A stretch of DNA of 64,000 bases from a virus, in the IMG/VR virus record IMGVR_UViG_3300005264_000040, positions 64,001 to 128,000 of that record; one strand, 5' to 3'. Positions 4,454 through 57,757 of this stretch are shown here, one piece after another (position 1 is the first letter of the stretch; each line of letters starts with the position of its first letter). The translations under genes and the position numbers were made by a program. The notes beneath the pieces were generated by a model, which saw only the letters and a list, made by a program, of their open reading frames with translations, did not search any database and had not been told where the DNA came from.

Positions 4454-5344
4454 GTGTTTTTAATGAACGTATCATTCGAATATATCAACAACAATTACAC
4501 TGATATGGTAAAAACGGCAGCAGCTCAAGTAGATGAATACGGTGCATACTTTTTAAGAACAAAAATCAGAGAAGCTTCTTTCTTCAGAGCTATACTTGAT
4601 CCAGAACCAAAGACATGGCAAGAACTTATCAGAGGTTGGAACGAAGAAGAACCATACGTAGTAGTACATAAAGAACCAGATGCTACTGCATTCGTTATTG
4701 ACTTCCGTGGTGAAACTCCATATAAATACGTAGAAGAAGAAAGATATCCTGTTTATTTCAAACAGATCCAAGCAGAAAACTACGAAAAGGATCTTATCGA
4801 ATTAAAAATAACAAAGATTCCTTTAATCAAAATCTTAAAAGATATCATGCTCAAAGAAATAGCTTACACAGAAGATAAATCATTTATGCAGACATTAGAA
4901 GCTGCTGTTAATGATGGTGGTAAAATACTTAATTCTTCTAATCCATTACCTCAAAGAGAAGATTTTGTAAATCTCATGAATTTGCTTGATGGTGACAAAT
5001 TAAAGACAGAATTAATCCTTATGTCAAATGTTATGTTCAACAACATTCAGCTTTGGAATTATGCTGATTTCGGTGAAAAATTAGTTGGTGAAGTAACAGT
5101 TAATGGATTAAAAATTCCAACATTATTTGGAAGAAAATTAATTACTACAAATAAAACTGATTTAGTTCCTGAAGGAGTAGCTTATGCATTCACTGCAAGA
5201 GAATTCTTAGGACATTCATTCAAAATAGAAGATGTTAATTTCTATACCAAGACAGATAAGAAGAAAATGACATTTACAGCTTGGGAATTTTTAGGTGCTT
5301 CTATAGGAAACTCAAAAGCTGTAGCAAAGTTAGTTCTTGCATAA
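4454..5344 (+). CDS. Major capsid protein, HK97 fold (likely start ATG 4463)
   Basis: Position after protease and decoration genes; RTKIREASFFRAIL, LFGRKLITT, AWEFLGASIGNSKAVAKL; biased codon use; strong SD; followed by terminator. Confidence 0.85.
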   Translation: MFLMNVSFEYINNNYTDMVKTAAAQVDEYGAYFLRTKIREASFFRAILDPEPKTWQELIRGWNEEEPYVVVHKEPDATAFVIDFRGETPYKYVEEERYPVYFKQIQAENYEKDLIELKITKIPLIKILKDIMLKEIAYTEDKSFMQTLEAAVNDGGKILNSSNPLPQREDFVNLMNLLDGDKLKTELILMSNVMFNNIQLWNYADFGEKLVGEVTVNGLKIPTLFGRKLITTNKTDLVPEGVAYAFTAREFLGHSFKIEDVNFYTKTDKKKMTFTAWEFLGASIGNSKAVAKLVLA

Positions 5345-5371
5345 TAAAAGCCTCTTTGAGAGGCTTTTATT
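5343..5371 (+). terminator. Intrinsic terminator after capsid gene
   Basis: Perfect 13-bp stem AATAAAAGCCTCT-TTG-AGAGGCTTTTATT. Confidence 0.8.
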
Positions 5372-5414
5372 GCATTGTATGTTTTTATAATTATATTAGA
5401 AGGGGGTAATTTAA

Positions 5415-5858: not shown

Positions 5859-5887
5859 AATTAATAATGAAAGCGGGATGATTTTTT

Positions 5888-13781: not shown

Positions 13782-15407
13782 TCAAGGCTCATTTTGAATT
13801 ATTCCTTTGTCAAGGCGGCCTGAATAAAACAGTGCAGCCATTACCGCATATGTGACACTATGTACAGAATCATCGTAAGTTTCAGGGTCATGATCATAAA
13901 TAACTTTTGTGCCGTTTCTTGTGTCACTTTGTTCAACATATAAAGATAAAAAGTCTTTAGCAAAATTCTCCCACACTTGATATTTAGGGAATAATATCCT
14001 AAGATTTTTTATATTTTTTATAATCCAACGAATAGCTATGGTTCTATTCATAACAAATTTTTCAGAACTTTTATCCCATTTTAAAAAAGCAGAAGAATTT
14101 CCGGAATAGTAAAATTCTAATACAGGATTATATTCTAACACACGCATAACAGCTGTACGAATAGCACTATTTGCTCCACCTGCACCTACTCCCCAATCTA
14201 CTCCTATATATTTTGGTTTAAATGTATTAAATAATGGAATGACATAATTTTGTACAATTTTAAATGGATCCGAATTTGTTTTTTCAAATCTCAACATTTT
14301 GACAACTTTAAAATGTATTCCATCAAATGCTAAAATAGTAATTACTGTAGAAGCATTTTTAGTAGAAGTAGTTGCCCAGTCAATTCCCATAAAATAATTG
14401 GTGGAAAACTTTAATTTGTCAGGTTTTTCTAAAAAGTCCCAATCCCCAGAAGCTCTTATCAAATCTTCTTGTGACAAAGGCCTTTCTGCATCTTCCCACG
14501 AAATTCCCAAAACTTCGTTAGCAAATTGTGTAATTGTATAATTTTCATTCATATATTTTTCCCAATAAATATTTTCCCAGGAAATCCATTTAACCATTAA
14601 TTGAGAAATATGAATTCCTCTTACACGTGCTCCTGGGTTTAATGCGGCCCATTGCCCTTCTTTAGGATTTACTAAACCTCCACATCTAAGACAATGAAAA
14701 CCATCTTCTTTGAAGATTTTGTCATGGTTTTCTACTAATGCAGGATCAGATGCTGCGTGCCAATACCCACAATGCGGACATTTGAATACCCATTGAATTT
14801 GAGTAGATTTTTGCCATGTGGTTTCTATAATATTCTGTCGTGTTTTAGGAGTTCCTGCATAATATTTTAATTTATAAGGGGAATGTGATAAAGATTCTTC
14901 TATGATTGGAATTGAATCTCTTAAATGGTCCTGGAATTCATCGAAAATATTTGCATCAGCAGAGAAACCCCTTGCACGGTCTCCAGCACCTTCTTTCTTT
15001 TTATTAGAAGCACCAGAATATGTCACAATTATGTGAGAACCATTTTTGAACTTTCTTTCCATAACTTTATTGATTAATCTTCTATCTACCATGTATTTTC
15101 TAAAATAAGGTGATTCTTCTATAAAAGGATTTAACTTTTCATTCGCAAATAATTCTGCTTGGAATTTTGAAGGAGCAATATAACCCGATACGAAGTAAGG
15201 AATTGCAACACTTAAAGATAAAATTTTTCCTGCGGCAGTAGTAGATTTTTCAACTTGCCTTGCGGTTTTTAAAACAGTGGGATGCGTAATATCATCATAA
15301 ATAAGTTTTAAATAATCCCTGCCTTTAAGAGAGAAAGGTTTTCCCCCTAATGTCAGAACCGCTTGAGCTATATCGCTCAAGCGGGTTCTTTTAGTTTTTG
15401 TCTCCAT
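13782..15407 (-). CDS. terL: Terminase large subunit (lambda GpA-like)
   Basis: KTARQVEKST Walker A variant, IFDEFQD Walker B, GTPKT, CPHC/CLRC Zn ribbon, GIDW RNase H-like nuclease, DDSVHS. Confidence 0.93.
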   Translation of the reverse strand: METKTKRTRLSDIAQAVLTLGGKPFSLKGRDYLKLIYDDITHPTVLKTARQVEKSTTAAGKILSLSVAIPYFVSGYIAPSKFQAELFANEKLNPFIEESPYFRKYMVDRRLINKVMERKFKNGSHIIVTYSGASNKKKEGAGDRARGFSADANIFDEFQDHLRDSIPIIEESLSHSPYKLKYYAGTPKTRQNIIETTWQKSTQIQWVFKCPHCGYWHAASDPALVENHDKIFKEDGFHCLRCGGLVNPKEGQWAALNPGARVRGIHISQLMVKWISWENIYWEKYMNENYTITQFANEVLGISWEDAERPLSQEDLIRASGDWDFLEKPDKLKFSTNYFMGIDWATTSTKNASTVITILAFDGIHFKVVKMLRFEKTNSDPFKIVQNYVIPLFNTFKPKYIGVDWGVGAGGANSAIRTAVMRVLEYNPVLEFYYSGNSSAFLKWDKSSEKFVMNRTIAIRWIIKNIKNLRILFPKYQVWENFAKDFLSLYVEQSDTRNGTKVIYDHDPETYDDSVHSVTYAVMAALFYSGRLDKGIIQNEP

Positions 15408-22142: not shown

Positions 22143-25100
22143 CTATTTGATTAATTGCTCAAATTGCCATTTGTCTAATATATTTATGGTTTTTATTTTG
22201 TTTTCCTTCAAATCGCGATAATCATTTAGCACTATTGTTTTTTGAACATCATATATATCTAAAGAACCTTCTGCATTCATTACATTTTTTATTCCATTTT
22301 TACTATAATAGTTTCGTATCCAAAATCTATCTTTTAATTCTTGATAGATTTCAAAGTATTCATCTAAAAAATAAAATGCACTATCTTTAGGTAATACTTT
22401 TATATGTGGCAAATTATATATAGGTTTTCCGCTTATATTAACAACTAGCTTTAAATCTATCAAAATAGCTTTGCAAATTTCTACTTCTATTTTTCTAAAA
22501 GACTGAACAAATAAAAACTGAATCCCTCCACAATTTTCCAATTTGACAGGGGGACAACTATCTTCTGTCGCGTATTGAGATACGAATATATCTGTATAAA
22601 TAGGAGGACAATTGTCTTCTGTTGCATGCTGTAGTACATACACATCAAAGTTTATAGAAGGATGTACGTATTGCATTAAATCAGCGAATTCTATATCAAT
22701 AGGAGGACAATTATCTTCTGTTGCATGCTGAATTAAATTAGCAAACTCAATGCTAATCGGAGGACAGTTTTCTTCTGTTGCATATTGCATCAAATCTGAA
22801 AATGTAAAACGCACAGGTTCTTTTGTATTGAATACTGAATATTGCGATATTCGAATATCCATATCAATAGGAGGACAACTATCTTCGTCTTGTGTTGCAT
22901 ATTGCAATAAATTCAAAGTAAGATATTTTGAAACATCAGTATAAGGCATTTTATAATCTTTATTTGTATATTCTAAAACAGTGCATTTAATTGTATTTTT
23001 AGGTTTAATTTCGAAAGGAGTTTTTTCAATATCTACATATTGAGTTAAATTAGCAAACTCTATATCAATAGGGGGACAACTGTCTTCGTCTTCTGTTGCG
23101 TATTGCATTAAATCAGCAAACTCTATATCAATAGGAGGACAACTATCTTCGTCTTGTGTTGCATATTGCATTAAATCAGCAAACTCTATATCAATAGGAG
23201 GGCAACTGTCTTCGTCTTCTGTCGCGTATTGCGTTAAATTAGCGAATTCAATATCAATAGGAGGACAACTGTCTTCATCTTCTGTTGCATATTGAGTTAA
23301 ATCAGCGAATTCAATATCAATAGGAGGACAACTGTCTTCATCTTCTGTTGCATATTGTAATAGAGTAACAGGTTTAACATCAATAGGGGGGCAACTATCC
23401 TCATCTTGTGTTGCGTATTGCATTAGATTTGCAAACTCTATATCAATAGGAGGACAGCTATCTTCGTCTTGTGTTGCATATTGTAATAGAGTAACAGGTT
23501 TAACATCAATAGGGGGGCAACTATCCTCATCTTGTGTTGCGTATTGCATTAGATTTGCAAAAGTTATAAATTTAGAAACATCAGTATAGGGCATATGATA
23601 ATCTTTATTTGTATATTCTATTATGACACATTTAATTGAATTGTGGGGCCTTTTATCTAAAGGTGTCTTTTCTTCATCTATATATTGAATAAGATCTGCC
23701 AAGTCTATTTTGTGACTTTCTTTTTTATGATAAATTTTACGTTCCCACTGACACTCGATTGATGCATGAGGTCTTTTGTCTAAAGGTGTTTTCTCTTCAT
23801 CTATATATTGCATCAAATCTGGAAATTCTATTTTCTTTTCTTTTTTTATATGATAAATAATAGGTTCATAAACACATTCAATTGGAATACCAGGCCTTGT
23901 TACTTTATGAAGAACAGTCTGATAAAGATCAAACATATATATAGAACGGTTTGTATCTTCTCCATAACTCGCAACAACAAAAGAAGGGCCTGCTTGGTTT
24001 GTATATCTTTTTGTGAAAACACTTAAATATTTCGCATTTATTATATTTAAATCATAAAATAAATGTATCGGATACACTATATCTGGATATCCGTAGAAAA
24101 TATTCGTTTCATCATGATGATCGGGAATTTTTATTATATAAACTCTTTCATCTATTGTACTATTAGCTATAATAAAATATCCATATATATCAACTGTATA
24201 ATAGCTAAAATCAAAGTTTTCTATATCAGGTATTTTTGTTTGTAAAATGTCTGATATATATCCTACGTGATAAAAAAACTTTTCTAATCCTCCATTATTA
24301 TCTATTGAAAATTTAATTTGTTTAGTGTGTAAGGTATATATGGAATGGGTAGAACTAGGATATTTTGCATAATAAGTTAATCTTCCAAGATAAGAGTTAA
24401 AACGAACAGGATTGCTGGTATTAAACATCCCATTCAAACTTTCTCTTATACCTTGCCCATCTTTAGGATATAAAAGATAATATTGAAAGTTATGATCTTC
24501 TACATTATATTTCATGTTTGCAATTTCTATAAAATAGTAATCCGGAATATCTATTGGAGTTGTGCTACCATTATAATTTTCCTTGATTAAAACAAGGTTT
24601 TGAACACCGCCTGTCCATATAAACCATTGATATGGTTTTGCTTTTGATTGCAAAACCATAACAGGTAAATAAAGAGGTTCGTTTCTATATTCTACATTAT
24701 TAGTAATATCTTTTATATAAACAGTATAAAAATCATCATTTGCAGTATATTGAACATATGTACTGTAGCCTATTACGCCTTGAGATATATCAAAAGCGGA
24801 AGAATCAGGAAGATCTGCATATTGTATATTTTGATTTACCAAATCCAAAAGAAGAATTTTATTTTGACTTCTACTTAAAACCATTACATAACCATTAAAA
24901 GGCCAAATATCATTTCTATCATCTAACCACGTATCGTCTGGAGTAACAAAAAGAGAACCTTCGCCTATTGGATCCACGCCTCTTCTTCCATATTTTATAA
25001 TAGCATTAGTTGGTTCCATAGCAGTCATTATCCACCAGTCTTCCAACAAATAAGTTCTATGCAATCTGAAAGGTACTAAATTACTAGCATTTGGATCATT

Positions 25101-25475
25101 ATATACATATATTCTGCTAAAACTTCGATTATCTATATCGAATTTTACTAAATAACAATGTTGAACTGTTTGATAATAATCGGAAAAACCTACTCTCCCT
25201 ATATATATATCTTTATTTTCTCTATCATAAATAGCACGTCTTGTATAATTTCCGCTTGAACCATTTGGCATAGTATAAGTATGAACGGATATAATTGAAT
25301 AATCATATCCTACCAGAGTTATTCTTAAATTCTGATAATAAGTTTCTACTATAGCAAACTTAATCGTTTCATCTATATTATGAATATAATCAATAGTACT
25401 TGTGATATTATATGTTTCTTCTATATTTATATTTACTTTATTCACTACAAAAGTATAACTTGTCACATCGCTCAT
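22143..25475 (-). CDS. Fibre-like virion protein with acidic Cys-Pro-Pro tandem repeats and shared C-terminal module
   Basis: Propeller-like N-region similar to 25549..27591; repeat shaft; ..NAEGSLDI...LNDYRDLKE. Confidence 0.65.
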   Translation of the reverse strand: MSDVTSYTFVVNKVNINIEETYNITSTIDYIHNIDETIKFAIVETYYQNLRITLVGYDYSIISVHTYTMPNGSSGNYTRRAIYDRENKDIYIGRVGFSDYYQTVQHCYLVKFDIDNRSFSRIYVYNDPNASNLVPFRLHRTYLLEDWWIMTAMEPTNAIIKYGRRGVDPIGEGSLFVTPDDTWLDDRNDIWPFNGYVMVLSRSQNKILLLDLVNQNIQYADLPDSSAFDISQGVIGYSTYVQYTANDDFYTVYIKDITNNVEYRNEPLYLPVMVLQSKAKPYQWFIWTGGVQNLVLIKENYNGSTTPIDIPDYYFIEIANMKYNVEDHNFQYYLLYPKDGQGIRESLNGMFNTSNPVRFNSYLGRLTYYAKYPSSTHSIYTLHTKQIKFSIDNNGGLEKFFYHVGYISDILQTKIPDIENFDFSYYTVDIYGYFIIANSTIDERVYIIKIPDHHDETNIFYGYPDIVYPIHLFYDLNIINAKYLSVFTKRYTNQAGPSFVVASYGEDTNRSIYMFDLYQTVLHKVTRPGIPIECVYEPIIYHIKKEKKIEFPDLMQYIDEEKTPLDKRPHASIECQWERKIYHKKESHKIDLADLIQYIDEEKTPLDKRPHNSIKCVIIEYTNKDYHMPYTDVSKFITFANLMQYATQDEDSCPPIDVKPVTLLQYATQDEDSCPPIDIEFANLMQYATQDEDSCPPIDVKPVTLLQYATEDEDSCPPIDIEFADLTQYATEDEDSCPPIDIEFANLTQYATEDEDSCPPIDIEFADLMQYATQDEDSCPPIDIEFADLMQYATEDEDSCPPIDIEFANLTQYVDIEKTPFEIKPKNTIKCTVLEYTNKDYKMPYTDVSKYLTLNLLQYATQDEDSCPPIDMDIRISQYSVFNTKEPVRFTFSDLMQYATEENCPPISIEFANLIQHATEDNCPPIDIEFADLMQYVHPSINFDVYVLQHATEDNCPPIYTDIFVSQYATEDSCPPVKLENCGGIQFLFVQSFRKIEVEICKAILIDLKLVVNISGKPIYNLPHIKVLPKDSAFYFLDEYFEIYQELKDRFWIRNYYSKNGIKNVMNAEGSLDIYDVQKTIVLNDYRDLKENKIKTINILDKWQFEQLIK
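22545..23830 (-). repeat. Coding tandem repeats, 63 bp / 21 aa unit QYAT(E/Q)DEDSCPPID(IEFA(D/N)L(M/T)|VKPVTLL)
   Basis: 8 contiguous + 1 separated full units, 4 shorter CPP units, and duplicated QYIDEEKTP and KDY.MPYTDVSK blocks. Confidence 0.95.
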
Positions 25476-27614: not shown

Positions 27615-27623
27615 ATTATATCA
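27615..27623 (-). promoter_or_regulatory. Extended -10 promoter TGATATAAT
   Basis: 24 nt upstream of start 27591. Confidence 0.6.
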
Positions 27624-27653
27624 TTTAAAATTTATATGATGCTATTAAAAAAA

Positions 27654-27677
27654 AATTCGGGATATACATCCCGAATT
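27654..27677 (-). terminator. Intrinsic terminator after RNAP gene
   Basis: AATTCGGGAT-loop-ATCCCGAATT followed by a U-run on the minus strand. Confidence 0.8.
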
Positions 27678-30600
27678 AGTACTTTCCTTTTTCGCCTTTC
27701 CCAAAAGTAACACCTCTTGCCCATTGAGCTATTGGTGAATAACTATGTTTCTTTGTTTTTGCACCTGTCATAGCTGAATGAGGAACAGTTTGTCTTAAAT
27801 ACCTAAAACTCATTCTATGTTCAAAATCATCTGCAATTGTAGGTTGTTTTGCTGAACCTAGTAATAAATTCTTGTATTTTATCTTATCGTTATAAACAGT
27901 AACTTTTTTTATACCTGCTTTTTCTAATTCTTCTTTTATATCTTCATCTATTAAAGTTCCTTTTGAAATATGAGCTGTGTCATCATATAATCTATGTCCT
28001 ATTGCATCTTTTAAAGGGACTGTCATAGAAGAATCTCTATTTAAAGAATCGATATAATTCCAATTTACGACATCTCCTGTTTTTAATTTATGTTCATAAG
28101 GTCCTGGATCCACTACTACAGCTTTATCAGTAACAGATCTTACAATAGTTTCCGTTACTTGAGGATTCATCTTTTTATCTATTTGGTTATATACAATATC
28201 ATTTAATTCATTGAGCATTGCTTTTTGTGCTTCAGGCACACCTCTTAATCTTGCTAATTGTTTGTGAGGCAAAATACCATGGGACAGTTTGTCTCCTTTT
28301 TTTACAAATTGTCCTTCCTTCACAACTAATCCTAAACGTTTAGGGATTTTGTGTATTTTATCTTTGATTTTCACTTCATAAACTGAAGATTTTTCTACAA
28401 TTTTTTCAACTTTTCCACTACGTTCTGCAAGTTTTGCAAAATTAGGATTACTTTCAGGCATTCTTAATAATGTAGAAACTTGTGTAAATACATCCCCTAT
28501 ATTTTCATTTCCTGCTCCTACTACACTACCGGAATGAAACAATGACATAGAGGTTTGAGCTAAAGGTTCTGTTACAGCTTGTCCTGATTTTATCCCTATA
28601 TTTTCTCCTATTTCAGGTAATTTATAACTTTCATCAATACCAAAAGATTTAGCCGCTATTCCTTCAGGTAATGTTGATGTTAAAGGGGATTTTATGTATA
28701 TAGACGTTATTCCGCTTTGTTTTAAATCTTTAATCATTTCAGCGGTTACTTCTTCGCCTTTTTTATATTCTGTTTTCTTACCTTTTATATTTTGAGCTAA
28801 AAACCTTCCTATATATTTTTCATCTACATTTACTTTTAAACCTGGATCTTTGTCATCATCTTTATCAGCAACAACTAAGGTCATTAAAGATTCTAATAAT
28901 TCTTTGTTCAAAGCTCCAGGTTCAGAAACCATAGATTTTCTTGCAATCATACCAGAACGAGCACCATACCCTACACTTAAATATTCAGCAGGAGTTAAAC
29001 CTTCTGCGAAACTTCTTTTTACTACAATTGGTGCAGGTTTTCCTTTTGCGTCCTGAACTAATAAAGGAGTAGCTGCAATTTGCCTTATTTGTCCAATACT
29101 TCCTTTTGCTCCTGACATCGACATGTTGTATAATCCATTCTCCTTATATTTTTTAGAACGTTTATCTTCAAGGGATTTATCTAATTTCTTTTGTAAATCC
29201 ATAGCTTTTTCTATTTTTTGTTTATAAGGAAGTTGATTTATTTTATCCACTTCTTCTTTGATTTTTTTGACATCATCATCTTCTTCTTTAATATCATCAA
29301 TACCTACACTTAATCCAATTCTTGTAATTGCGAATCTTCCTACATCTTTCCAAGTTGAGAATATTCTATTTATCTCTTCTCCTAATAAACGCCCTTTGGA
29401 TTTTTCAATAGCTAATTCATTAGCTAATTGTTGAATCATTTTTTTGTTCCATGTAGAATTTTTATTTGGTTCTATATATTTTCTGTAGAATTCTCTTTTA
29501 AGATTTTCATCTTGGATAGTTAATAAAACATCCATAATCAAATGCCTTCCTGCAGTTGCACTATACCTGTATCTCGGATCTACTCCTAATATTTCCACTG
29601 TATCATTCCATTTTATTTGGTTATTTAAAAATCTATCATACAATTCATCATAACTTTTTACCATTATTTTTCTTCCTGGTTTTTCTGGTGGTTCTGTCAC
29701 TCTAAATATTCCATTTAAATATTCCATTGAAGGCAAATGCATTATTTGTTTTGTTCCAGGTTTTAAAAGATTATTAGAAGGCAACATTTTAAATGCTTCT
29801 TTTCTTGCTTCTTCAGTAACCGGAACATGAATTCCCATCGTATCACCATCAAAATCAGCATTAAAGCCTTTTACAACCAATGGATTAAGTTGAACAGCTT
29901 TCCCTTCTATAAGTCTTGGCTTAAAAGATAATATAGAAAATTTGTGTAATGAAGGCGCTCTATTTAACATTATAGGACGTTTTTTCATTTCTTCTTGTAC
30001 AATATCCCAAACCATATCATTAGGATCTTTCAATAATTCAGTAATTCTTTTATTGTCATATCCCATTTTTTTGAGTTCTTTCTTTATAAATGGTTTGTAA
30101 AGATTCAAAGCAACGGGTTTAGGAATACCAGCTTCATCTAATTCTAAATCAGCACCCGGTTCTATTAATCCTGTTCCTGAAAGTTCTTGCCTTTTCTTCA
30201 CTACTTTTGACTGAAAATATCCAGATTTAGGAGATTTACCTGGAGCACCTGCCACATAATGTAGAGCTCCGGCTGGTTCTTCTTGTTTGCTGTTTTTCAT
30301 AGGAGGATTACTTCCAACAACAGCTCCTACAGCTTCCAATAATTTTTGTCTATATTTTGCTGCACGTTTAGGGGATAAATTATCTTTCATTTCTTTGAAA
30401 CGTTGGTTTAAATTAATCAAATCTTGATATACATAATTTATTTGAGAAACTCTTACATCTGATTTATCGGTGGGAGAAGGATACACCGGCCTAAATTTTG
30501 GTGGGATTACTGGGATTTTAGAAATAACTAAATCTTCAGGTTTTAATTTATTTTCCTTCAACATTTTTAACATTTGCACTTTTCTTAAAGCTTTGTCAAG

Positions 30601-32097
30601 AGTTCTTTGTTCATTACTATTTTTCAAATGTTCTTCTGCTTTTTTTAATTCTTCATCCACATTTATTTTTGACAATAAATATTTAACAGCTTCGCCTCCG
30701 CCAATTGCTTTATCTTTTGGAGATACTTTATTTACATCTACTAATTTACCATCTTTTAAGACCATTTTACCTTCCATGATTTTTCTTAAATCTTTTTGTT
30801 TTAAATCTAATAATTCAGCTATTTGTTTTTCGAATAAAGGATTTACAATAGGTTCTGCTAATTCTATTTTCCCCCATTTATCTCCTTTAAGGCCACCTAA
30901 TTTATGCGGGTCAAACAATCCACCTTTTTCTGGTAAAAGGTTGTGGCCTGCTAAAATTTTAGCGTTTTCTACTTCACCTGCGGCTAAATTATCTACATCT
31001 TTATCGGTAATAGGTCTATATTTAATCTCCTCTTTGTTTTCTTCTGAATAAATACCAGCACCAGTTAAATAGGCTCTAAATTTTTCATATGCAAAAGGAG
31101 TTTTCATGGTTGAAGGAGGGGGTACTTCCCCGTTCTCAATGGCCCTCCAGAATTCATCATTTTTCTCAGCTTTATAGGTGGCCATTTCACGCAGGTTTTC
31201 CCTTGCGTTGTGCGCTACCATCCCGTAGAATGTTAGCGCATCTAAAGAACGAGCACCCCCACCAGCACCAGTTCCTTTTAAAGGTTGTAAATCTGAATCG
31301 TAAGCCCAATATTCGCCTCTTGTATTAGTTTTCTTATCTACTTGTTGAGGAAGTTTTATAAAATATTGATATCCCACCAAAGCCGGTGTTTCCATTTCAC
31401 CTTCTCCAGGAATATATATTTTTTCCTTATCTTTAATATTATATTTTTTCATTAATTGTTTTGTATATTCTGTCATATCCTTTTCCGTATCAAACAAAGG
31501 CACTTTAATAGGATGTCCAGCTTTAACTGCAGCTTTCCCAGCTACAGTCTCTAATATCTGCGATGGATTGATACGTGAAGGCAACGAAAGAGGATTTAAA
31601 AGGACATCGATAGGTTTCCCTTTTTCATCTTTAGGCATTTCGTCATCAGGTAATATTAAAGATACAGTACCTTTATTCCCGTGTCTTCCGGTCAATTTAT
31701 CTCCAACTTGCATTGGAGATTCATATTTTACCATAACACGAATTTTATCTCCTAATCTATATACTTTTACTACTTCTCCTATTTCTTTATGTTTCCATAC
31801 GATACTTTTATCTACATAATCTCTTAAAACTTTATCTGCAAAAGCACCTAATATTTTATCATTTTCTGAAGGTACTCTTTCTCTCAAAACTACTGCAATA
31901 GGATCCCCATTTTCAAGTTTAATTCCTTTTTTTGCAATACCTTCATTATCTAATTTTTCTAGTTGGTTTGCACTATATTTAGTTGGATAATATGCTTGAT
32001 ATTTCTTTTTATCAAGAATAGTTTCTGGTGTAATTTCGATATCGTATTCTACCAAGTGTTCAGAAGTCATTTTTTTTGCTGCAGTTTCTGAAAGCAC
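27676..32097 (-). CDS. rpoBC: Phage two-barrel RNA polymerase: beta C-terminal third fused to beta'
   Basis: GDKLTGRHGNKG, NPLSLPSRIN, PVIPPKFRP, LNRAPSLH, catalytic NADFDGD, GAKGS, bridge helix EGLTPAEY..GYGARSG, trigger loop EPLAQTSMSLFH; annotated GTG start has no SD. Confidence 0.95.
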   Translation of the reverse strand: MLSETAAKKMTSEHLVEYDIEITPETILDKKKYQAYYPTKYSANQLEKLDNEGIAKKGIKLENGDPIAVVLRERVPSENDKILGAFADKVLRDYVDKSIVWKHKEIGEVVKVYRLGDKIRVMVKYESPMQVGDKLTGRHGNKGTVSLILPDDEMPKDEKGKPIDVLLNPLSLPSRINPSQILETVAGKAAVKAGHPIKVPLFDTEKDMTEYTKQLMKKYNIKDKEKIYIPGEGEMETPALVGYQYFIKLPQQVDKKTNTRGEYWAYDSDLQPLKGTGAGGGARSLDALTFYGMVAHNARENLREMATYKAEKNDEFWRAIENGEVPPPSTMKTPFAYEKFRAYLTGAGIYSEENKEEIKYRPITDKDVDNLAAGEVENAKILAGHNLLPEKGGLFDPHKLGGLKGDKWGKIELAEPIVNPLFEKQIAELLDLKQKDLRKIMEGKMVLKDGKLVDVNKVSPKDKAIGGGEAVKYLLSKINVDEELKKAEEHLKNSNEQRTLDKALRKVQMLKMLKENKLKPEDLVISKIPVIPPKFRPVYPSPTDKSDVRVSQINYVYQDLINLNQRFKEMKDNLSPKRAAKYRQKLLEAVGAVVGSNPPMKNSKQEEPAGALHYVAGAPGKSPKSGYFQSKVVKKRQELSGTGLIEPGADLELDEAGIPKPVALNLYKPFIKKELKKMGYDNKRITELLKDPNDMVWDIVQEEMKKRPIMLNRAPSLHKFSILSFKPRLIEGKAVQLNPLVVKGFNADFDGDTMGIHVPVTEEARKEAFKMLPSNNLLKPGTKQIMHLPSMEYLNGIFRVTEPPEKPGRKIMVKSYDELYDRFLNNQIKWNDTVEILGVDPRYRYSATAGRHLIMDVLLTIQDENLKREFYRKYIEPNKNSTWNKKMIQQLANELAIEKSKGRLLGEEINRIFSTWKDVGRFAITRIGLSVGIDDIKEEDDDVKKIKEEVDKINQLPYKQKIEKAMDLQKKLDKSLEDKRSKKYKENGLYNMSMSGAKGSIGQIRQIAATPLLVQDAKGKPAPIVVKRSFAEGLTPAEYLSVGYGARSGMIARKSMVSEPGALNKELLESLMTLVVADKDDDKDPGLKVNVDEKYIGRFLAQNIKGKKTEYKKGEEVTAEMIKDLKQSGITSIYIKSPLTSTLPEGIAAKSFGIDESYKLPEIGENIGIKSGQAVTEPLAQTSMSLFHSGSVVGAGNENIGDVFTQVSTLLRMPESNPNFAKLAERSGKVEKIVEKSSVYEVKIKDKIHKIPKRLGLVVKEGQFVKKGDKLSHGILPHKQLARLRGVPEAQKAMLNELNDIVYNQIDKKMNPQVTETIVRSVTDKAVVVDPGPYEHKLKTGDVVNWNYIDSLNRDSSMTVPLKDAIGHRLYDDTAHISKGTLIDEDIKEELEKAGIKKVTVYNDKIKYKNLLLGSAKQPTIADDFEHRMSFRYLRQTVPHSAMTGAKTKKHSYSPIAQWARGVTFGKGEKGKY

Positions 32098-34030
32098 TAT
32101 AGCATGCTGTTTTTAAATTTTTACCTGTTGTAAGCTGATTCTTTTTAGAATAATTACTTTCTGCCAAAACAGTTCCTGGAGATACTTTATCTCCTTTTTT
32201 GATTTTAGGAGTATGTCTAATGAAACTCGTAGGACCCGTTTTCAAATATGAGGCCATATTAAAGGTCTTAATAGTACCGTCTGGCTGTTTTACTTTGATA
32301 GAGTTTTCAGACACGTCAGAGACGACGCCAGACACATCTGAGACGATATTAGTTTCAGTTGCAAGTAATTTTCCTACATCTGTTTTTCCTTTTTGAGTAG
32401 CTTGTACTAAAGGTATCTCAGCATCTTTTAATGGGATAGCTTGTGTCATCTGTTTTGCTGCCATAGCAGCCCTACCTCCCTGCAATGATTGTAAATAAGG
32501 AATTTGCAAGGTGGTTGCATCAAATAATTGATCTACATCTGTAAAAATATGAGTTACATCTTTTCTATTTACAACATCAAGTTTTCCGTGATTTAATGCT
32601 TTTACATCATTTTCTTTTGCTATCCATTTTATGTTTTTCACTTTGCCTTTATCATCTTTTTCTATTTTAGCTTCTCCATATAATGCAATAACATATTTAT
32701 CATAGTCAATTGGTCTTACCAGTTCATAATCTTTCTTCTTAATATTATAAAGTTTAGCTGCCAAATCTTTCCCTTTTCCTTTTTTAACAACTTGAGTTTG
32801 CATAGTTTTATACAATGTTACACCTAACTTATCCGATTCAGGTGTATGAACAGGATCTACAACTCCAAATTGATAATCGTTTAAAGACCTATCCATTGTA
32901 GTAATTTGTTGTTCGTCTTCCAACCCGCCTTCACCTGTTAATATAACTTTATTATTGTGTGCTAAAACAGAGAGAGGGTTATAACCATCCACTACTTGAG
33001 ATAATGATGAAGTTTTAAAAAATTTGAATATTGTGTTTGAAAATGTTTTTTTCAAAAATTCCAAATCTTTTATAGAAGATATAGAATCAACTTTATCTTC
33101 TAACGATTTTTGTATATATTTCATTTGATTTGAAAGTTTTTCTCCTAGTATATCTTCTATTTCAACAACTTTTTTGTATTTAAAATTAGAAGTTTCTGTA
33201 GGTTCTTTTTTACCTCCAGCTAAATCTATTGCAGATTTTATTAAATCTACTATATAATCTAAAGAAACTTTTTCGTGGGGAACATCAATGTTTAATTGAT
33301 TAACTTCAGGATCCATTATAGTTCCATTGAAATAGTCTTTAATTTTATCTACCATATAAGAATGTTCCCTTTTTTCAGGGTCCTTAAATATAATCTTATA
33401 AAAAGTTTCTACTGCTTGCTGAGAAGCTGTATTCAAATCTCCTTTAACATGTTTCAATGCATCATCAACAACATCTTTTCCTAACTTCTTTTTTAAATTT
33501 TCTACGCTATATCCCATACCAATTAAGAATGGGATAGCATCCATTGTTTTTGACATAAATAATTTAATTGTGCCTTTAATTGGATTATAAATTATTTTAA
33601 AATTCAAACCTTTTTCAAGGAAAGCCCTTGCTTCGTATTCGTCTCTTGAAGTTAATTTGAGATAGGATCCAGCTTTAAGTCTTAATTGAGTTGGAACAGA
33701 ATACTGTGTTCCATCTACAATAAAAGTCCCATGAATTCCCATAATAGGAAATTCCATAAGCGTAATCGTATCTTCATCTATTATTTTATTATTCTTTTTT
33801 AATTGTAATTTTGTATTAAGTTTAGCAGTAAGACTTCTATCAGTATTAAAGATTTCTTCAAGTTCTTTATAGTCTTTATAAGCTTCAGCCATATCTATTT
33901 TATAATCAACTAAATCAATAATTTGTGTTTTACCTTTAATAGGGAAAACTTTTTTTAATAATTGTTCTGCAGTTCTGATTAAAGAATTATTGACTCTTTC
34001 AACTGTTTTTTTAAGACTATTTTCAGACAT
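32060..34030 (-). CDS. rpoB: Phage RNA polymerase beta N-terminal two-thirds (last 14 aa out of frame)
   Basis: GTFIVDG, SLSQVVDGYNPLSVLAH, TGEGGL, DPVHTPE, KQMTQAIPL, TGKNL; SD AGAAGGTGG. Confidence 0.93.
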   Translation of the reverse strand: MSENSLKKTVERVNNSLIRTAEQLLKKVFPIKGKTQIIDLVDYKIDMAEAYKDYKELEEIFNTDRSLTAKLNTKLQLKKNNKIIDEDTITLMEFPIMGIHGTFIVDGTQYSVPTQLRLKAGSYLKLTSRDEYEARAFLEKGLNFKIIYNPIKGTIKLFMSKTMDAIPFLIGMGYSVENLKKKLGKDVVDDALKHVKGDLNTASQQAVETFYKIIFKDPEKREHSYMVDKIKDYFNGTIMDPEVNQLNIDVPHEKVSLDYIVDLIKSAIDLAGGKKEPTETSNFKYKKVVEIEDILGEKLSNQMKYIQKSLEDKVDSISSIKDLEFLKKTFSNTIFKFFKTSSLSQVVDGYNPLSVLAHNNKVILTGEGGLEDEQQITTMDRSLNDYQFGVVDPVHTPESDKLGVTLYKTMQTQVVKKGKGKDLAAKLYNIKKKDYELVRPIDYDKYVIALYGEAKIEKDDKGKVKNIKWIAKENDVKALNHGKLDVVNRKDVTHIFTDVDQLFDATTLQIPYLQSLQGGRAAMAAKQMTQAIPLKDAEIPLVQATQKGKTDVGKLLATETNIVSDVSGVVSDVSENSIKVKQPDGTIKTFNMASYLKTGPTSFIRHTPKIKKGDKVSPGTVLAESNYSKKNQLTTGKNLKTACYSAFRNCSKKNDF

Positions 34031-34071: not shown

Positions 34072-34080
34072 ATTATATCA
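34072..34080 (-). promoter_or_regulatory. Extended -10 promoter TGATATAAT for RNAP gene
   Basis: 42 nt upstream of start 34030, just downstream of a terminator. Confidence 0.6.
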
Positions 34081-34088
34081 TAAAAAGG

Positions 34089-34115
34089 AAAACAGTCGCT
34101 ACGTGCGACTGTTTT
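34089..34115 (-). terminator. Intrinsic terminator
   Basis: AAAACAGTCGC-loop-GCGACTGTTTT perfect 11-bp stem. Confidence 0.8.
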
Positions 34116-35061: not shown

Positions 35062-35070
35062 ATTATATCA
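35062..35070 (-). promoter_or_regulatory. Extended -10 promoter TGATATAAT
   Basis: 36 nt upstream of start 35026. Confidence 0.6.
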
Positions 35071-35104
35071 CATGTTTTGACGTTCTTGCCAAAAATACTA
35101 AAAA

Positions 35105-38638: not shown

Positions 38639-38647
38639 ATTATAACA
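38639..38647 (-). promoter_or_regulatory. Extended -10 promoter TGTTATAAT (leftward of divergent pair)
   Basis: 30 nt upstream of start 38609. Confidence 0.6.
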
Positions 38648-38668
38648 GAAAAAAAAAGAAAATTGCTA

Positions 38669-45934: not shown

Positions 45935-47200
45935 TTATACTATAACTAAATTAAGATTTAAATTTATCACAGTAGGTCTCTGAGGGTCCTGCAATAAATT
46001 AAAACTTTGTATTGTACCTGTCAAAAACGAATCAGTTTCTGTTTTGGAATAATTCTTAAAAAATTCTTTTTCAAAAAAATAAGAACTTCTCAATGAAATA
46101 GTTGCGCCTGTTCTCATTATACCATTTAAAATACTTTCAAAAATGTTATATACTGCAAACGGGTTCTCATCTATTTTTAATTCTTCTACCAAATCAGCTA
46201 CATCAAACATAACATTTATATTCATAGAAGTGGTAGAAATATCATAATAAAACAAGGATATAGTTCTTACATATTCACGTAATGCACTTGAAGGATTTAA
46301 CGAAATACTTAAATTTGTCAAAATCCCAGGTAATATATATTTATGTTTTTCAGATAAATTTAAAATCAACTTTACTTCTGTTTCCTCTTCAGAATTCAAA
46401 TAATCCAAAAATGCATTATTCCATCTCATCTCTTGGATATCGCCTTTTATTTTTGTTATTATTTTTTCATCAGTTTGATGATGTAATACAGGAGTGTATA
46501 GTCTAAATTTACCTTTCGGATCTACTATAGGATCTTTTAATATATTAGTAGTAGGCATTTTACTTTCTTGTATGTAATCATACCATGCAGTTCTTTCTTT
46601 ATCTAAAGTATATCTATCAATAGAAGATAATAGAATGCCGGTCAAACCTCCTGTTATTGCTGGTGTATTTGCATCCCACATATAAGAAAACCCTACAGGA
46701 GCAAATAAATAAACTCCATTTTGTGAAGCGATGTAAGTTATATAATTGCCAGCAAAAAAACCAGTCCAAATATGTTTATAGAACCAATCCAAAAACGCAA
46801 AAGCATTTCTTAATTGTCTTTGTAAAATTTGTGCAGTTTCAGAAGCATACGGATTTGTATTTTGAATATTTAAAGCATAGTCTTTATCATGCACAGCAGG
46901 AAACATAAATCCCAAATTTATTCGTGGAAAACTTGGTGTAGAATATACAGGCTGTGCTTGTTTTAAAGTATATAAAGTTTGCATTCTTGAGTTTTGATTT
47001 ATTGTCAAAGAATTCATAAATGCATCTACAAAAAGAGGTTCTCTGACTATTTTAGGTTTATCATATCCGGAATCCTCAGTAATTTCTTGATAAACAATTC
47101 CAAACTCTACTTCGCTTACATCGTCATATTCATACCCTGCTTTATTCAATATTTCTTCATAAATTTGGAGTTTCGAAGTTTTATTTGCCATTTTTATCAC
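45935..47200 (-). CDS. Tube-initiator/baseplate protein with tube-like domains
   Basis: FMNSLTINQNSRMQTLYTL..VYS and similar beta-strand repeats; in baseplate cluster. Confidence 0.5.
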   Translation of the reverse strand: MIKMANKTSKLQIYEEILNKAGYEYDDVSEVEFGIVYQEITEDSGYDKPKIVREPLFVDAFMNSLTINQNSRMQTLYTLKQAQPVYSTPSFPRINLGFMFPAVHDKDYALNIQNTNPYASETAQILQRQLRNAFAFLDWFYKHIWTGFFAGNYITYIASQNGVYLFAPVGFSYMWDANTPAITGGLTGILLSSIDRYTLDKERTAWYDYIQESKMPTTNILKDPIVDPKGKFRLYTPVLHHQTDEKIITKIKGDIQEMRWNNAFLDYLNSEEETEVKLILNLSEKHKYILPGILTNLSISLNPSSALREYVRTISLFYYDISTTSMNINVMFDVADLVEELKIDENPFAVYNIFESILNGIMRTGATISLRSSYFFEKEFFKNYSKTETDSFLTGTIQSFNLLQDPQRPTVINLNLNLVIV

Positions 47201-47931
47201 CTATCAATTTTTATTTTGTCCAATTGCATTTTAGAAATCTTTGTAATTTGACTTTCAGCATTAAGATAATCTTGTAATATTTTTGTTGATTTGTTTTTGA
47301 TTTGAGAAACTCTTGCATTTGATATTTTGTATTTTTTACTAATCTCGTTTCCAGATTTTCCTTGAAGAATATCATTAAAAATTGGGATATGTTCTTGAGG
47401 AAGTTTTTGTTTGGCATAGTCAATAGCATTTTTATATTTTAAACTTGTGTCATCTTCGACTGGATCGAAACTAGTATAATCAACACTTACACCTGGCTTT
47501 AACATTTGCTGCATTTTATTCACCTTCGAAACTGGCCATTTTAATTCGTCAGCTAGTTGTTGTGGTGTTGGGTTTATTCCACCGTTTCTTGATTTGAGTT
47601 TTTCTCTTACTGACAAAAATGTACCTGCTTCCAATTTATAATTTTCTGGAAGCCTTACAGCTGTTTGATTATCATTTACAAATCTATATAATTTGTTTAA
47701 ATAACTTGACACTACAGCTTGTACAGGTACTCCTCTATTAGGATTATACACCTTTAATGCTTGTATAATCAATCTATCCGCTTCAGCTTCTATTACTGAA
47801 GGAGATACTCCACTTCCATAATATTTCTTTATGGCATTGACTTTTTGTCCTTCTAAATCATCAAGGATTTCATCTAATAACATTGGATCTTTTGTTTGTT
47901 GCCATTTAACTACTTTTTCTTTAAGTGTCAT
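47197..47931 (-). CDS. Phage sigma70-family factor
   Basis: Region 2 (QALKVYNPNRG), VRLP, region 3 (PTPQQLADELKWP), region 4 HTH (SGNEISKKYKISNARVSQI). Confidence 0.85.
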   Translation of the reverse strand: MTLKEKVVKWQQTKDPMLLDEILDDLEGQKVNAIKKYYGSGVSPSVIEAEADRLIIQALKVYNPNRGVPVQAVVSSYLNKLYRFVNDNQTAVRLPENYKLEAGTFLSVREKLKSRNGGINPTPQQLADELKWPVSKVNKMQQMLKPGVSVDYTSFDPVEDDTSLKYKNAIDYAKQKLPQEHIPIFNDILQGKSGNEISKKYKISNARVSQIKNKSTKILQDYLNAESQITKISKMQLDKIKIDR

Positions 47932-51137: not shown

Positions 51138-51651
51138 CCAGCTGCACCTTTATATTTTCATATAAAATTTGTTTAACTGTTTCCCTCAAAGTTTCGAATA
51201 ATGGTTGCAATTTTTCATTTTCTTCATCAAATAAAACAATTTCTTTTTCGCTCATTTCTGTTGCTTTTAACCATACCGTCTCAAAAGCAATTCTATCTAT
51301 TTTTATTCCTTTTTTTCTTATATCTATTTTATCCATAAGAAAATTAGATATAGAAAAATCATCCATATAGTCTTGCGCCTCAATAAAAAGCGGGTCTGTT
51401 TTCAGCATTTCAAATTCTTTTTCAAATATTTTTTCTTCCGCCATTCTTTTAATAGCTTCTTCAAAAAACTCTTTGTAATTAAACAACTTCAAACCAGCTT
51501 TTATTATTTTAGTATCTGATGTATTTTTTATCAAAAAATATACATATAATTCTTCTGACATATTTATAGGAGTTGTTATATCTACTTCTAAAATCTTTGT
51601 TGTATTAACAAATACACTATGATTAAATTCTTTAAAATGTATCCATCCCAT
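51097..51651 (-). CDS. Hypothetical protein
   Basis: Coupled between portal and lysin genes. Confidence 0.6.
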   Translation of the reverse strand: MGWIHFKEFNHSVFVNTTKILEVDITTPINMSEELYVYFLIKNTSDTKIIKAGLKLFNYKEFFEEAIKRMAEEKIFEKEFEMLKTDPLFIEAQDYMDDFSISNFLMDKIDIRKKGIKIDRIAFETVWLKATEMSEKEIVLFDEENEKLQPLFETLRETVKQILYENIKVQLDEYFKKKGVEQYE

Positions 51652-53572
51652 TGCAACCAGGACTTCTTGGCGGCCTTACTTCCGGATTAGATTTTATTTG
51701 CTGGGGATTCTGAGGCTGTTGCGGTTGTTGTGGTTGTTGTGGTTGTTGCCCCCCACTTGTATATTGCTGTAATGCGGCAATTACATCATCTGTTAAATAA
51801 GGCATAATTTGGTCTAAGAAACCTTGGTTAGATTGATCTAATTGTTGTAATTGGCTCAATATTTGTTGTAAATGAGCTGGAGGTTGTGGGCCTCCAGCCT
51901 GTTCGGGTGGTTGTTGAGGTGGTTGCACTTCTGCTGCATTTGGCAAACCATTAATAAGTAATTCTTTTATCTCAAGAGGTGTATAGGTTTTATCTAGTGA
52001 TATAGAAGGTGTAGCCTCAAATGCTTGAGCATTTGTTTGAGCTTCTTCTACAACCTTCTGTGCTCTATATTGTGATAAAGATTGTGTTTCTGCCATTGTT
52101 AATTCTTCCTGTTTTATGTTATTCATTTCTTCTTCGTAATCTAATCCAAAGTTTTCTAACAATGTCTTTCCAGAAACTAATTTCATCTGATTTAAATTCA
52201 TCAATGATTGTTTAAACTGAACGTCATCTGCCATTTTAAATGGTGCAAAATCCACTTTTACTCGTGGTAATTTATGATAATTTGCAATATATTTTACTAT
52301 TTTTCTTAAAACTTCTTTTATTCTATTTCTGTAGTTTATGTATTGATTTTCTAACATTCTCATTGAAACAGAACTTCCACTCCAGGTTAAACCCCCATAA
52401 ACAAATTCTCTTGGAACTCCCATCCCAGCTATAACTTCTTCAGCTAATTGTTGGATTTCAGGTTGCAAAAGATACATTTTACCGTCTCCTGCAAGTTTCC
52501 CTTGACCTACTGGAATAGGGAAAATTCCTACATAAGAAGGGTCTAATTCATATCTTTTTAATTGCATCCTAATTTTGCTTTCTAATTTTTGAAGATTCAT
52601 ATTATTCATATAAGGTGAAGTTGGATCCACGTTTTGTGGAAATAAATAATTCCTTGGAATTACCTGATTAAAAGCAATGTATTCATTAGCTCTTCTTAAC
52701 ATTTGCATATAAAACAAAGTTTTCATTACAGGAGTTATTGCTGGTAATCCCCACCCATTCATATAGTCAGAAGCTGTTCTAGTCTCTTTTATATGAATGA
52801 TTTCGTTAAATTCTACTGCAGGATACCCTTTTAATACTGCGTCTATAAAAGGTTTTGGTGTTGTATAAAGGTACCAGGGTTTTGTTAAAATATTATGTCT
52901 TAAAGAATTTTTTATAAAATACAAATATCGATAAGAATCTGAAGTTTCATTATGTTCTATCATCATATTATTAGGTTGCCATGAAATTATCCTTAATTTC
53001 CCATCTCTTTTTATTTCATCTTTTGATTTCAATGGTTGCATTTTACCGCATTTGTCACAATATCCGTATATTTTGTGATTTCTAATATACCAATTGGGTT
53101 TTGATTTATCTGAACCTGTATTATAAATTGTCTCATTTGTAGAATTAGTATTATCTTTTTTTAATGTAATTTCATGGTCACATACACTACATTTATATGT
53201 TCTTGTAAATGGAGGTAATACAGTTAAAAATACATTTCCATACACTTTTAAATCAATCCCGATTTTTATTAAAGTGTGTTTTATATTCATCTGTTCAAAT
53301 ATATCTTCATATGCTTCTTTTATCTTTTCATCAGTAGTATCAAGTTCTATTGTAGTAATAGGATATTCTGCTGATTTTGATATTATAGCATGTACTAACG
53401 GATTTGTTTCGTAAAAATATTCTGACCATGAAAACAATTCTTTTATATTTTTAGGAAAAAACAAACTTGAAACATCAAAGAAAGGAGAAATAGGTGCATA
53501 CCAAAATAAACTAGCAGCAGTTCCTGTTTTCCTTGTTTCCTTTCTCATTTCTGGATTATTAGTTATACCCAT
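51632..53572 (-). CDS. Portal protein with Zn-ribbon insertion and Q/P-rich tail
   Basis: NPLVHAIISKSAEYP, GWGLPAITP, IAGMGVPREFVYGG...SGSSVSMRMLEN; CSVC...CDKC. Confidence 0.85.
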   Translation of the reverse strand: MGITNNPEMRKETRKTGTAASLFWYAPISPFFDVSSLFFPKNIKELFSWSEYFYETNPLVHAIISKSAEYPITTIELDTTDEKIKEAYEDIFEQMNIKHTLIKIGIDLKVYGNVFLTVLPPFTRTYKCSVCDHEITLKKDNTNSTNETIYNTGSDKSKPNWYIRNHKIYGYCDKCGKMQPLKSKDEIKRDGKLRIISWQPNNMMIEHNETSDSYRYLYFIKNSLRHNILTKPWYLYTTPKPFIDAVLKGYPAVEFNEIIHIKETRTASDYMNGWGLPAITPVMKTLFYMQMLRRANEYIAFNQVIPRNYLFPQNVDPTSPYMNNMNLQKLESKIRMQLKRYELDPSYVGIFPIPVGQGKLAGDGKMYLLQPEIQQLAEEVIAGMGVPREFVYGGLTWSGSSVSMRMLENQYINYRNRIKEVLRKIVKYIANYHKLPRVKVDFAPFKMADDVQFKQSLMNLNQMKLVSGKTLLENFGLDYEEEMNNIKQEELTMAETQSLSQYRAQKVVEEAQTNAQAFEATPSISLDKTYTPLEIKELLINGLPNAAEVQPPQQPPEQAGGPQPPAHLQQILSQLQQLDQSNQGFLDQIMPYLTDDVIAALQQYTSGGQQPQQPQQPQQPQNPQQIKSNPEVRPPRSPGCNGMDTF

Positions 53573-57748: not shown

Positions 57749-57757
57749 ATTATAACA
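57749..57757 (-). promoter_or_regulatory. Extended -10 promoter TGTTATAAT
   Basis: 31 nt upstream of start 57718. Confidence 0.6.

Follow-up and report, generated by a model that had tools for sequence, protein, structure and literature searches.

A predicted zinc-free, single-chain RNA polymerase of bacterial type encoded by an uncultured phage

What kind of RNA polymerase (RNAP) does a phage encode when the beta and beta' motifs of the bacterial enzyme lie on a single, apparently broken gene, and at what stage of infection would such an enzyme act? We addressed these questions for a gene on the minus strand of a 64,000-nucleotide (nt) stretch of phage DNA (hereafter the window), which comprises bases 64001-128000 of the 177,768-bp linear IMG/VR phage record IMGVR_UViG_3300005264_000040, itself estimated to be 83% complete. 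The product of this gene is the only RNAP of the phage, a bacterial-type enzyme with beta and beta' in one chain of 2,128 amino acids (aa). Judged from its sequence and those of its relatives, it appears to be a newly found, zinc-free and single-chain variant of the phage-encoded, bacterial-like RNAP represented by the cultured Salmonella phage Arash; we found no published description of a single-chain, zinc-less form in the literature. Coordinates of the features discussed are collected in Table 1.

One beta-beta' chain and a deletion in the record

In the record the gene is spread over two open reading frames (ORF1 and ORF2) that overlap out of frame. Their Pfam domains follow the co-linear order of beta and then beta' (Rpb2_3 in ORF1; Rpb2_6, Rpb1_1, Rpb1_2, Rpb1_4 and Rpb1_5 in ORF2), and the same co-linear domains are found on an intact version of the protein from sibling assemblies (P0133, described below), on which PF00562 scores 2.2e-58 (Rpb2_6, the beta double-psi beta-barrel [DPBB] with its GRHGNKG lysines). 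The domain matches place the polymerase clearly among the two-barrel enzymes, and the ORF and Pfam analysis reproduced what a first-pass annotation of the window had seen, namely that the beta and beta' motifs are co-linear on one gene and that the catalytic NADFDGD motif is intact. The two GRHGNKG lysines (K789 and K797), the three aspartates of NADFDGD (D1403, D1405 and D1407) and the trigger-loop histidine (H1843) are invariant in the family of single-chain relatives. Two substitutions pointed out in that annotation, serine for arginine in the trigger loop (MSLFH) and glutamine for histidine in the beta motif KLxH (KLPQ), were also recovered; in the zinc-less clade of the family the trigger-loop arginine is replaced by serine or asparagine, and the beta motif reads KLPQ. 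The beta lobe region is about 117 aa shorter than that of the best-matching bacterial beta, and both sigma-docking elements, the flap-tip helix of beta and the clamp helices of beta', can be aligned with those of bacteria.

The whole record holds one beta/beta' copy and encodes no second polymerase. The absence of alpha and omega genes, originally noted for the window, extends to the entire record: the profiles for alpha (PF01000 and PF01193) and omega (PF01192) gave no match in its 177,768 bp and were positive in 14 of 14 control genomes. The profile for the T7-like fold (PF00940) matched neither the record nor any of the control genomes.

The gene had further been described as frame-broken, with a length of about 2,130 aa if repaired. 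The single chain stands, with an intact length of 2,128 aa, but the break is a deletion specific to this record and not a property of the phage. Alignment with 35 single-chain relatives shows that precisely 11 conserved residues (Y-x-P-[YF]-x-G-x-N-[YF]-E-D) are missing from the window; they form the beta active-site loop with the equivalents of Escherichia coli E813 and D814; the aspartate is invariant and the glutamate nearly invariant in the family. The 90%-identity cluster that contains ORF1 and ORF2 has P0133 (2,128 aa, no cysteine) as its third member, whose sequence matches ORF2 and residues 1-642 of ORF1 at 100% identity and reads NLKTA-YLAYKGMNFED-AIVLSE. Its source contigs (a 184,070-nt ENA scaffold and a Logan contig of SRR6301447) both match the window at 100.000% identity across 12,387 nt, save for 32 extra bases at 32104/32105. 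Because these identical sibling assemblies are intact, and because no Shine-Dalgarno sequence was found upstream of the GTG codon of ORF2, the real product is one 2,128-aa chain, and the 32-nt gap in the record is an artefact of assembly or else a rare allele. The deletion junction (window positions 32101-32108) is a perfect palindrome, and a 2-nt AT microhomology borders the 32 nt in the intact sequence.

Two other explanations of the break were examined and rejected. A programmed frameshift or a genuine two-subunit split disagrees with the absence, rather than shift, of the 11 conserved residues, with the missing Shine-Dalgarno sequence and with the intact identical genomes; an intron or homing-endonuclease footprint disagrees with the position of the endonuclease of Vibrio phage D181, which lies at a different beta motif, and with the lack of any extra DNA here. 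For users of this window the practical correction is that the frameshift should not be taken as a pseudogene, a split subunit or recoding.

Cysteines, zinc sites and the single-chain family

A search of a collection of 5.8 billion proteins returned about 50 clusters of single-chain proteins of 2,000-2,150 aa with the same set of beta and beta' Pfam domains, located on phage-sized contigs of up to ~180 kb. The same search returned forms of 2,300-2,550 aa that bear inteins or LAGLIDADG domains and Arash-like forms of ~1,450-1,600 aa that end after the catalytic half of beta', and three related IMG/VR loci carry single ORFs of 2,139, 2,143 and 2,489 aa. Members of the family are only about 30% identical, and their phages span 30-53% GC. 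Close homologues were checked for split, cysteine-containing enzymes and proved to be single-chain and cysteine-free.

The first-pass annotation had reported that the polymerase has no in-frame cysteine, that the N-terminal zinc-binding domain of beta' is gone and that the second zinc site has lost all of its ligands, and each of these observations held. ORF2 contains no cysteine, and the two in ORF1 both fall in its short out-of-frame tail. The N-terminal zinc-binding domain, replaced here by a short loop, is absent from all 35 aligned relatives. At the four ligand columns of the second site the window polymerase reads D...S...A..S, versus C...C...C..C in 24 of the 35 relatives; in most of these 24 the four zinc-site cysteines are the sole cysteines of the protein, and the clade closest to the window polymerase has none. 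On the tree the four-cysteine site is the ancestral state, with one loss leading to the window's clade, perhaps a second in P0048, and an independent loss in P0042; the tree thus shows that the site was lost independently at least twice in the family.

A count of zero cysteines in 2,128 aa is less extreme than it appears because the whole phage proteome is cysteine-poor (0.37%, or 202 cysteines in 54,832 aa): 7.9 cysteines are expected in the polymerase, and the probability of none is about 4e-4. The absence is still significant, and it is conserved across the family. The proteome of Arash (53% GC) has a background of 0.6-1.1% cysteine; its two RNAP pieces contain one and four cysteines, the four being the zinc site, so that a single non-zinc cysteine is found in 2,131 aa. 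The Arash virion sigma gp10 and helicase gp217 contain none, and its terminase, ribonucleotide reductase (RNR) and primase contain 11-13 each; in Arash only the RNAP, gp10, gp217 and gp4 are depleted, the background being normal. Absence of cysteine as a general mark of virion proteins was ruled out by the cysteines in the portal and other shell-protein homologues of the window phage (those of Arash gp222 and gp234). Because these shell proteins contain cysteine, the constraint applies to the polymerase set and not to virion proteins in general. A 3,202-aa ORF beyond the window (record positions 163864-173472) likewise lacks cysteine, has no Pfam match and is a candidate for a further ejected or internal virion protein; Arash has a comparable structural protein, gp229, of 2,548 aa with 2 cysteines. 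At the other extreme, a 1,110-aa ORF at window positions 22143-25475 (minus strand), two genes downstream of the polymerase, contains 20 cysteines (1.8%, five times the average of the genome) and matches nothing in Pfam or PHROG.

Insertions are frequent in the polymerase gene. A relative of 49% identity (P0003/P0008; L009:2066-9535) carries an insertion of ~360 aa directly after NADFDGD, which has an Intein_splicing Pfam match and holds the only four cysteines of the protein; intein or LAGLIDADG insertions occur in many family members, and Vibrio phage D181 has a homing endonuclease between its beta pieces. The RNAP gene is a hotspot for selfish elements.

The best matches to the polymerase in the PDB are bacterial beta' (6e-94) and bacterial beta (1e-73), and further matches include the chloroplast plastid-encoded polymerase (~1e-49), the AR9 non-virion RNAP (2e-23) and archaeal and eukaryotic enzymes (~1e-20). 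The RNAP of Arash (gp206 plus gp216, with sigma gp10; OQ632216; PMC10585845), of which Vibrio phages D181, D148 and D69 carry homologues, is likewise a bacterial-type beta/beta' enzyme (35% identity, E 2e-134). It shares with the window polymerase the fusion of beta to beta', the lack of the N-terminal zinc domain, the near absence of free cysteines and a gp10-type sigma, and the two phages have the major capsid protein (MCP), portal and terminase in common, with the RNAP gene in the structural module. The Arash enzyme, however, comes as two pieces (1,525 + 606 aa) divided beyond the catalytic half of beta', and its second zinc site retains all four cysteines, whereas the window phage has one chain and no such site; the D181 enzyme comes in three pieces plus the homing endonuclease. 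The presence of polymerase and sigma in virions is a measurement made on Arash.

With the bacterial alpha2-beta-beta'-omega core the polymerase shares its domain order, catalytic motifs, clamp helices and flap tip, and with the natural rpoBC fusions of Helicobacter and Wolbachia the joining of beta to beta' in the same orientation. It differs from the bacterial core in having neither zinc sites nor cysteines and no alpha or omega genes beside it. The fused, bacterial-looking matches from our search (P0109-P0111) contain 15-27 cysteines, as against none in the window polymerase, which is also ~260 aa shorter than Bacillus subtilis beta plus beta' (1,193 + 1,199 aa), with shortened beta lobes.

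Other phage polymerases resemble it in part. Those of phiKZ and AR9 (PMC7598289, PMC9209446) are phage-encoded two-barrel enzymes without alpha and omega, one set of which is packaged in the virion, but they are split into four to five chains in two paralogous sets, where the window phage has one fused copy; they use gp68 or gp226 instead of a sigma70-type factor, and they are far more divergent (against the window polymerase, AR9 beta gives 2e-23 and bacterial beta 1e-73). Reviews of jumbo-phage RNAPs cover only this split, sigma-less type (PMC7598289, PMC7824862, PMC9209446). The mReC phages (Weinheimer & Aylward 2020, PMC7481178) are, like ours, uncultured tailed phages (~100-300 kb) with beta/beta' recognizable by cellular COG models and with RNAP genes among structural genes. 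By their listed proteins, however, they have separate beta (~1,000 or 1,365 aa) and beta' (~905-1,005 aa), sometimes with two sets per contig, and a large terminase subunit (TerL) of PF03237 and an MCP of PF07068, whereas in the window phage TerL matches PF05876 and the MCP has no Pfam match. The text of that paper makes no mention of fusion, sigma, cysteine, zinc or virions, and the IMG identifiers of our related loci are absent from its supplements (PMC7481178). The crAss-like gp66-type and YonO RNAPs also combine both barrels in a single polypeptide, and that of crAss-like phages is packaged in the virion (bioRxiv 10.1101/2020.03.07.982082), but they are too divergent for cellular beta/beta' profiles (PMC7481178) and have neither the accessory domains of bacterial enzymes nor docking sites for sigma. 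The packaging hypothesis takes its functional analogy from the virion RNAP (vRNAP) of N4, which has been described as a giant polymerase carried in the capsid and ejected (PMC4496689, PMC3821669) and as cysteine-free (PMC3821669); it differs in its unrelated T7-like single-subunit fold, its hairpin promoters and its lack of a sigma.

A phage sigma factor, its predicted docking and the promoters

The window also encodes a sigma70-family factor, which matches Sigma70_r3 (5e-6), the PHROG sigma family phrog_351 (1e-10) and, by tblastn, Arash gp10 (7e-7); apart from this sigma, the ten neighbouring large ORFs have no Pfam or PHROG match. A word-indexed homology search with the sigma found only the sigma itself, and it was therefore modelled without an alignment. 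In the model of the complex, sigma residues 14-56 and 87-92 lie on RNAP residues 1209-1244 (the clamp helices), with a score of 0.71 against 0.49 for the best of three controls; 58 of 80 solved complexes attained the mark that was passed, as did 2 of 110 mismatched pairs. Agreement between the runs extends to at least 31% of contacts, and the predicted local distance difference test (pLDDT) score of the partner is at least 70. Because sigma-clamp complexes have been solved many times, the pass may show likeness to those complexes and not proof of binding. The 244-aa sigma is likely to be the initiation partner of the polymerase. It had been singled out earlier as a cysteine-free sigma that might accompany the enzyme: that it is a real sigma is borne out, but its lack of cysteine carries no weight, as only 0.9 cysteines are expected in a protein of its size.

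Two cysteine-free ORFs to the left of the window (record positions 62509-63612 and 5129-6349) gave weak sigma region 3 and region 4 matches at E 0.015 and E 0.002, respectively. Both were rejected as sigmas, one as what looks like a generic protein with a C-terminal HTH_17 domain (5129-6349) and the other as an unsupported match, and the record yielded no convincing counterpart of Arash gp196, a second sigma.

Compared with Arash by tblastn, the RNAP matches at 2e-134 and 8e-34, the MCP at 2e-28, the portal at 4e-71 and TerL at 2e-64. Because the surrounding MCP, terminase and portal are shared, the polymerase can be placed in the morphogenesis region, as in Arash. No tRNAs were found in the window.

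The polymerase gene is preceded by a promoter-like site, the -35-like box of which lies inside an upstream terminator hairpin, and followed by a terminator-like hairpin; it appears to form its own transcription unit, bounded by hairpins on both sides. Genome-wide, TGNTATAAT is enriched upstream of genes: 17 of its 58 occurrences have [AT][AG]GCA exactly 15-16 nt upstream (0.3 expected), and 15 of these 17 [AT][AG]GCA-N15/16-TGNTATAAT sites (class A promoters) lie 18-71 nt before a start codon on the same strand, in most cases that of a large gene in the structural block. Canonical TTGACN-N-TGNTANAAT promoters number four, all of them in the left arm of the genome. The pattern points to ordinary sigma70-style double-stranded promoters of the extended -10 type. 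In class A promoters the -35-like box TAGCA sits 18-19 nt from TATAAT.

Table 1. Positions of the polymerase gene, its motifs and associated features, in window coordinates
Feature	Position	Strand	Remarks
RNA polymerase gene, beta fused to beta'	27676..34030	-	Two overlapping frames in the record; one 6,387-nt ORF of 2,128 aa (P0133) in sibling assemblies
ORF1, 656 aa	32060..34030	-	Beta residues 1-642, then 14-aa out-of-frame tail CYSAFRNCSKKNDF
ORF2, 1,473 aa, no cysteine	27676..32097	-	Remaining beta (DPBB, flap, C-terminus) joined straight to entire beta'
32-nt deletion junction	32104..32105	-	Codons for YLAYKGMNFED removed, frame shifted, palindrome AGCATGCT created
Beta C-terminus/beta' N-terminus fusion point, approximate	31033..31065	-	...YLTGAGIYSEENKEE...
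Site of deleted beta' N-terminal zinc-binding domain	30850..30924	-	Short cysteine-free loop GGLFDPHKLGGLKGDKWGKIELAEP instead
NADFDGD, catalytic Mg-binding motif	29842..29862	-	ORF2 residues 746-752, intact
Former second zinc site KSPLTSTLPEGIAAKSFG	28639..28692	-	C, C, C changed to S, A, S; first ligand is Asp at ~28855-28857
Trigger loop MSLFH	28534..28548	-	Arg changed to Ser; His invariant in family
Promoter-like site of RNAP gene, TAGCGA-N15-TGATATAAT	34072..34101	-	-10 element ~40 nt upstream of ATG
Intrinsic terminator-like hairpin and T-run	27647..27675	-	Directly after RNAP stop codon
Class A promoter of the next gene	27615-27644	-	
Class A promoter examples	27615-27644, 35062-35091, 38639-38668, 57749-57778	-	
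Sigma70-family factor, 244 aa, no cysteine	47197..47931	-	Orthologue of virion-detected Arash gp10
Major capsid protein	4454..5344		Common to window phage and Arash
Terminase	13782..15407		Common to window phage and Arash
Portal	51632..53572		Common to window phage and Arash

Packaging of the polymerase, competing explanations and significance

In purified Arash particles gp206 gave the most spectra of any protein (3,516), above the MCP; gp216 gave 1,210 spectra, and gp10 was detected with 100% coverage and 24 unique peptides, which puts the polymerase pieces and the sigma among the most abundant virion proteins (PMC10585845). The same preparation contained 116 proteins, including RNR, kinases and ligases, and its authors noted that abundant infection proteins might co-purify (PMC10585845). 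By analogy with Arash, the polymerase studied here is likely to be packaged in the virion and ejected with the DNA. The location of its gene in the structural module, under a promoter of the same type as those of the neighbouring large module genes, fits packaging, as does its avoidance of cysteine, a trait of N4 vRNAP.

The account that we consider rather probable is that the sole, fused, bacterial-type RNAP of the phage is independent of alpha and omega, is partnered with the phage sigma, and is packaged and delivered to the cell. The enzyme has kept its catalytic core (the GRHGNKG lysines, the NFED loop, NADFDGD and the trigger-loop histidine) and both sigma-docking elements, and has lost the N-terminal zinc domain of beta', the second zinc site and every cysteine, with its beta lobes shortened. 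Of this account, the sequences show the architecture, the losses and how they are conserved in the family, the presence of one gene copy and the deletion peculiar to the record, whereas alpha independence, the pairing with sigma, packaging and ejection are inferences. Covalent fusion probably stands in for the assembly platform of alpha dimer and omega, and initiation would most likely be carried out by the 244-aa sigma at sigma70-like double-stranded promoters. Following the Arash analogy, polymerase and sigma would most likely be made late, packed in the capsid and delivered with the DNA, where they would start phage transcription; the family-wide avoidance of free cysteine fits a protein that survives outside the cell and passes through the tail. 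The fuller proposal, that a complete sigma holoenzyme (one chain without alpha, omega, zinc or cysteine, together with the phage sigma) is carried in the capsid and ejected together with the DNA, is one that we advance tentatively, as a serious possibility.

Several points weigh against delivery of the polymerase in the virion, or against its independence of the host. Detection in virions is limited to Arash, with its split enzyme of 35% identity, and includes no single-chain member; carry-over of abundant intracellular proteins into that preparation is possible, according to its authors (PMC10585845). The low cysteine content of the polymerase is in part a trait of the whole genome (0.37%), and shell proteins of the phage do contain cysteine. 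The four TTGACN promoters in the left arm could let the host RNAP start the infection, and it is possible that the polymerase uses host alpha or omega. Loci of relatives were examined for the class A promoter motif and lacked it, so that the motif cannot be assigned to the phage sigma rather than to the host; the record, moreover, is only 83% complete.

The strongest competing explanation is that the polymerase acts inside the cell as a non-virion, middle or late enzyme, with host RNAP reading the early genes before the phage enzyme and sigma take over, and that its lack of cysteine reflects proteome composition or resistance to host defences directed at redox or zinc, rather than packaging. 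Host sigma-A enzymes can read extended -10 promoters, the type found in this genome, and the canonical TTGACN -35 promoters of the left arm, the low genome-wide cysteine content (0.37%) and the evident cytoplasmic enzymes in the Arash virion list all speak in its favour. We nevertheless consider it unlikely, given that Arash gp206 spectra exceed those of the major capsid protein and that gp216 and gp10 were detected too, that cysteine depletion in Arash is confined to the RNAP, gp10, gp217 and gp4 while the background is normal, and that the gene is situated in the structural module and carries a late-gene type of promoter.

A second possibility concerns assembly and not location: the single chain may not be self-sufficient and may recruit the host alpha dimer and omega. 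The naturally fused rpoBC of Helicobacter and Wolbachia still uses alpha, and the window enzyme resembles bacterial beta/beta' far more than it does the alpha-less AR9 enzyme. The phage encodes neither alpha nor omega, however, and a conserved interface with host alpha is unlikely because the 30-53% GC span of the family means very different hosts; in addition, AR9 shows that an alpha-less core is viable (PMC9209446). On balance, we regard dependence on host alpha as quite unlikely.

Initiation on hairpin or forked single-stranded templates in the manner of N4, proposed in the first-pass annotation with the 58007-58092 palindrome as an example, draws on the N4 analogy and on the long palindromes in the genome and on nothing else. 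It is very improbable: the enzyme is of the sigma-dependent bacterial type and keeps its sigma-docking elements, 17 sites of -35/-10 type are found where 0.3 are expected (15 of them just upstream of genes), and promoters of the same type flank the palindrome region at 57757 and 58194. Least credible is a pseudogene in a defective phage, inactivated by the broken frame and the missing NFED loop, because, although the record does lack 32 nt that include the family-invariant aspartate of that loop (and its nearly invariant glutamate) and ORF2 has no Shine-Dalgarno sequence, two assemblies of the same phage are intact and 100% identical over 12.4 kb, both gene halves are otherwise undamaged, and every other long ORF of the record is open.

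The accepted view is that bacterial RNAP requires alpha2 and omega for its assembly, along with two structural zinc sites in beta'. The family described here has no alpha, no omega and neither zinc site, yet it keeps the catalytic core and the capacity for sigma docking within a single chain of ~240 kDa, and so provides structural and synthetic biology with a minimal bacterial-type polymerase of natural origin. That only the four zinc ligands are kept as cysteine across proteins of ~30% identity, and are then lost in several lineages, is an unusually clean evolutionary signal, which most plausibly reflects a physical constraint imposed by existence inside the virion and by transit through the tail. 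Should packaging be confirmed, the T7-like vRNAP of N4 and the split vRNAP of phiKZ would be joined by a third independent solution to virion-borne transcription, with a bearing on resistance to rifampicin-type host shut-off as well as on anti-phage defences. If ejection of the holoenzyme proves true, the phage would be independent of host RNAP from the first minute of infection, its enzyme would be the smallest self-sufficient bacterial-type RNAP known, and covalent fusion would be seen to be capable of replacing the alpha/omega assembly platform and both structural zinc sites.

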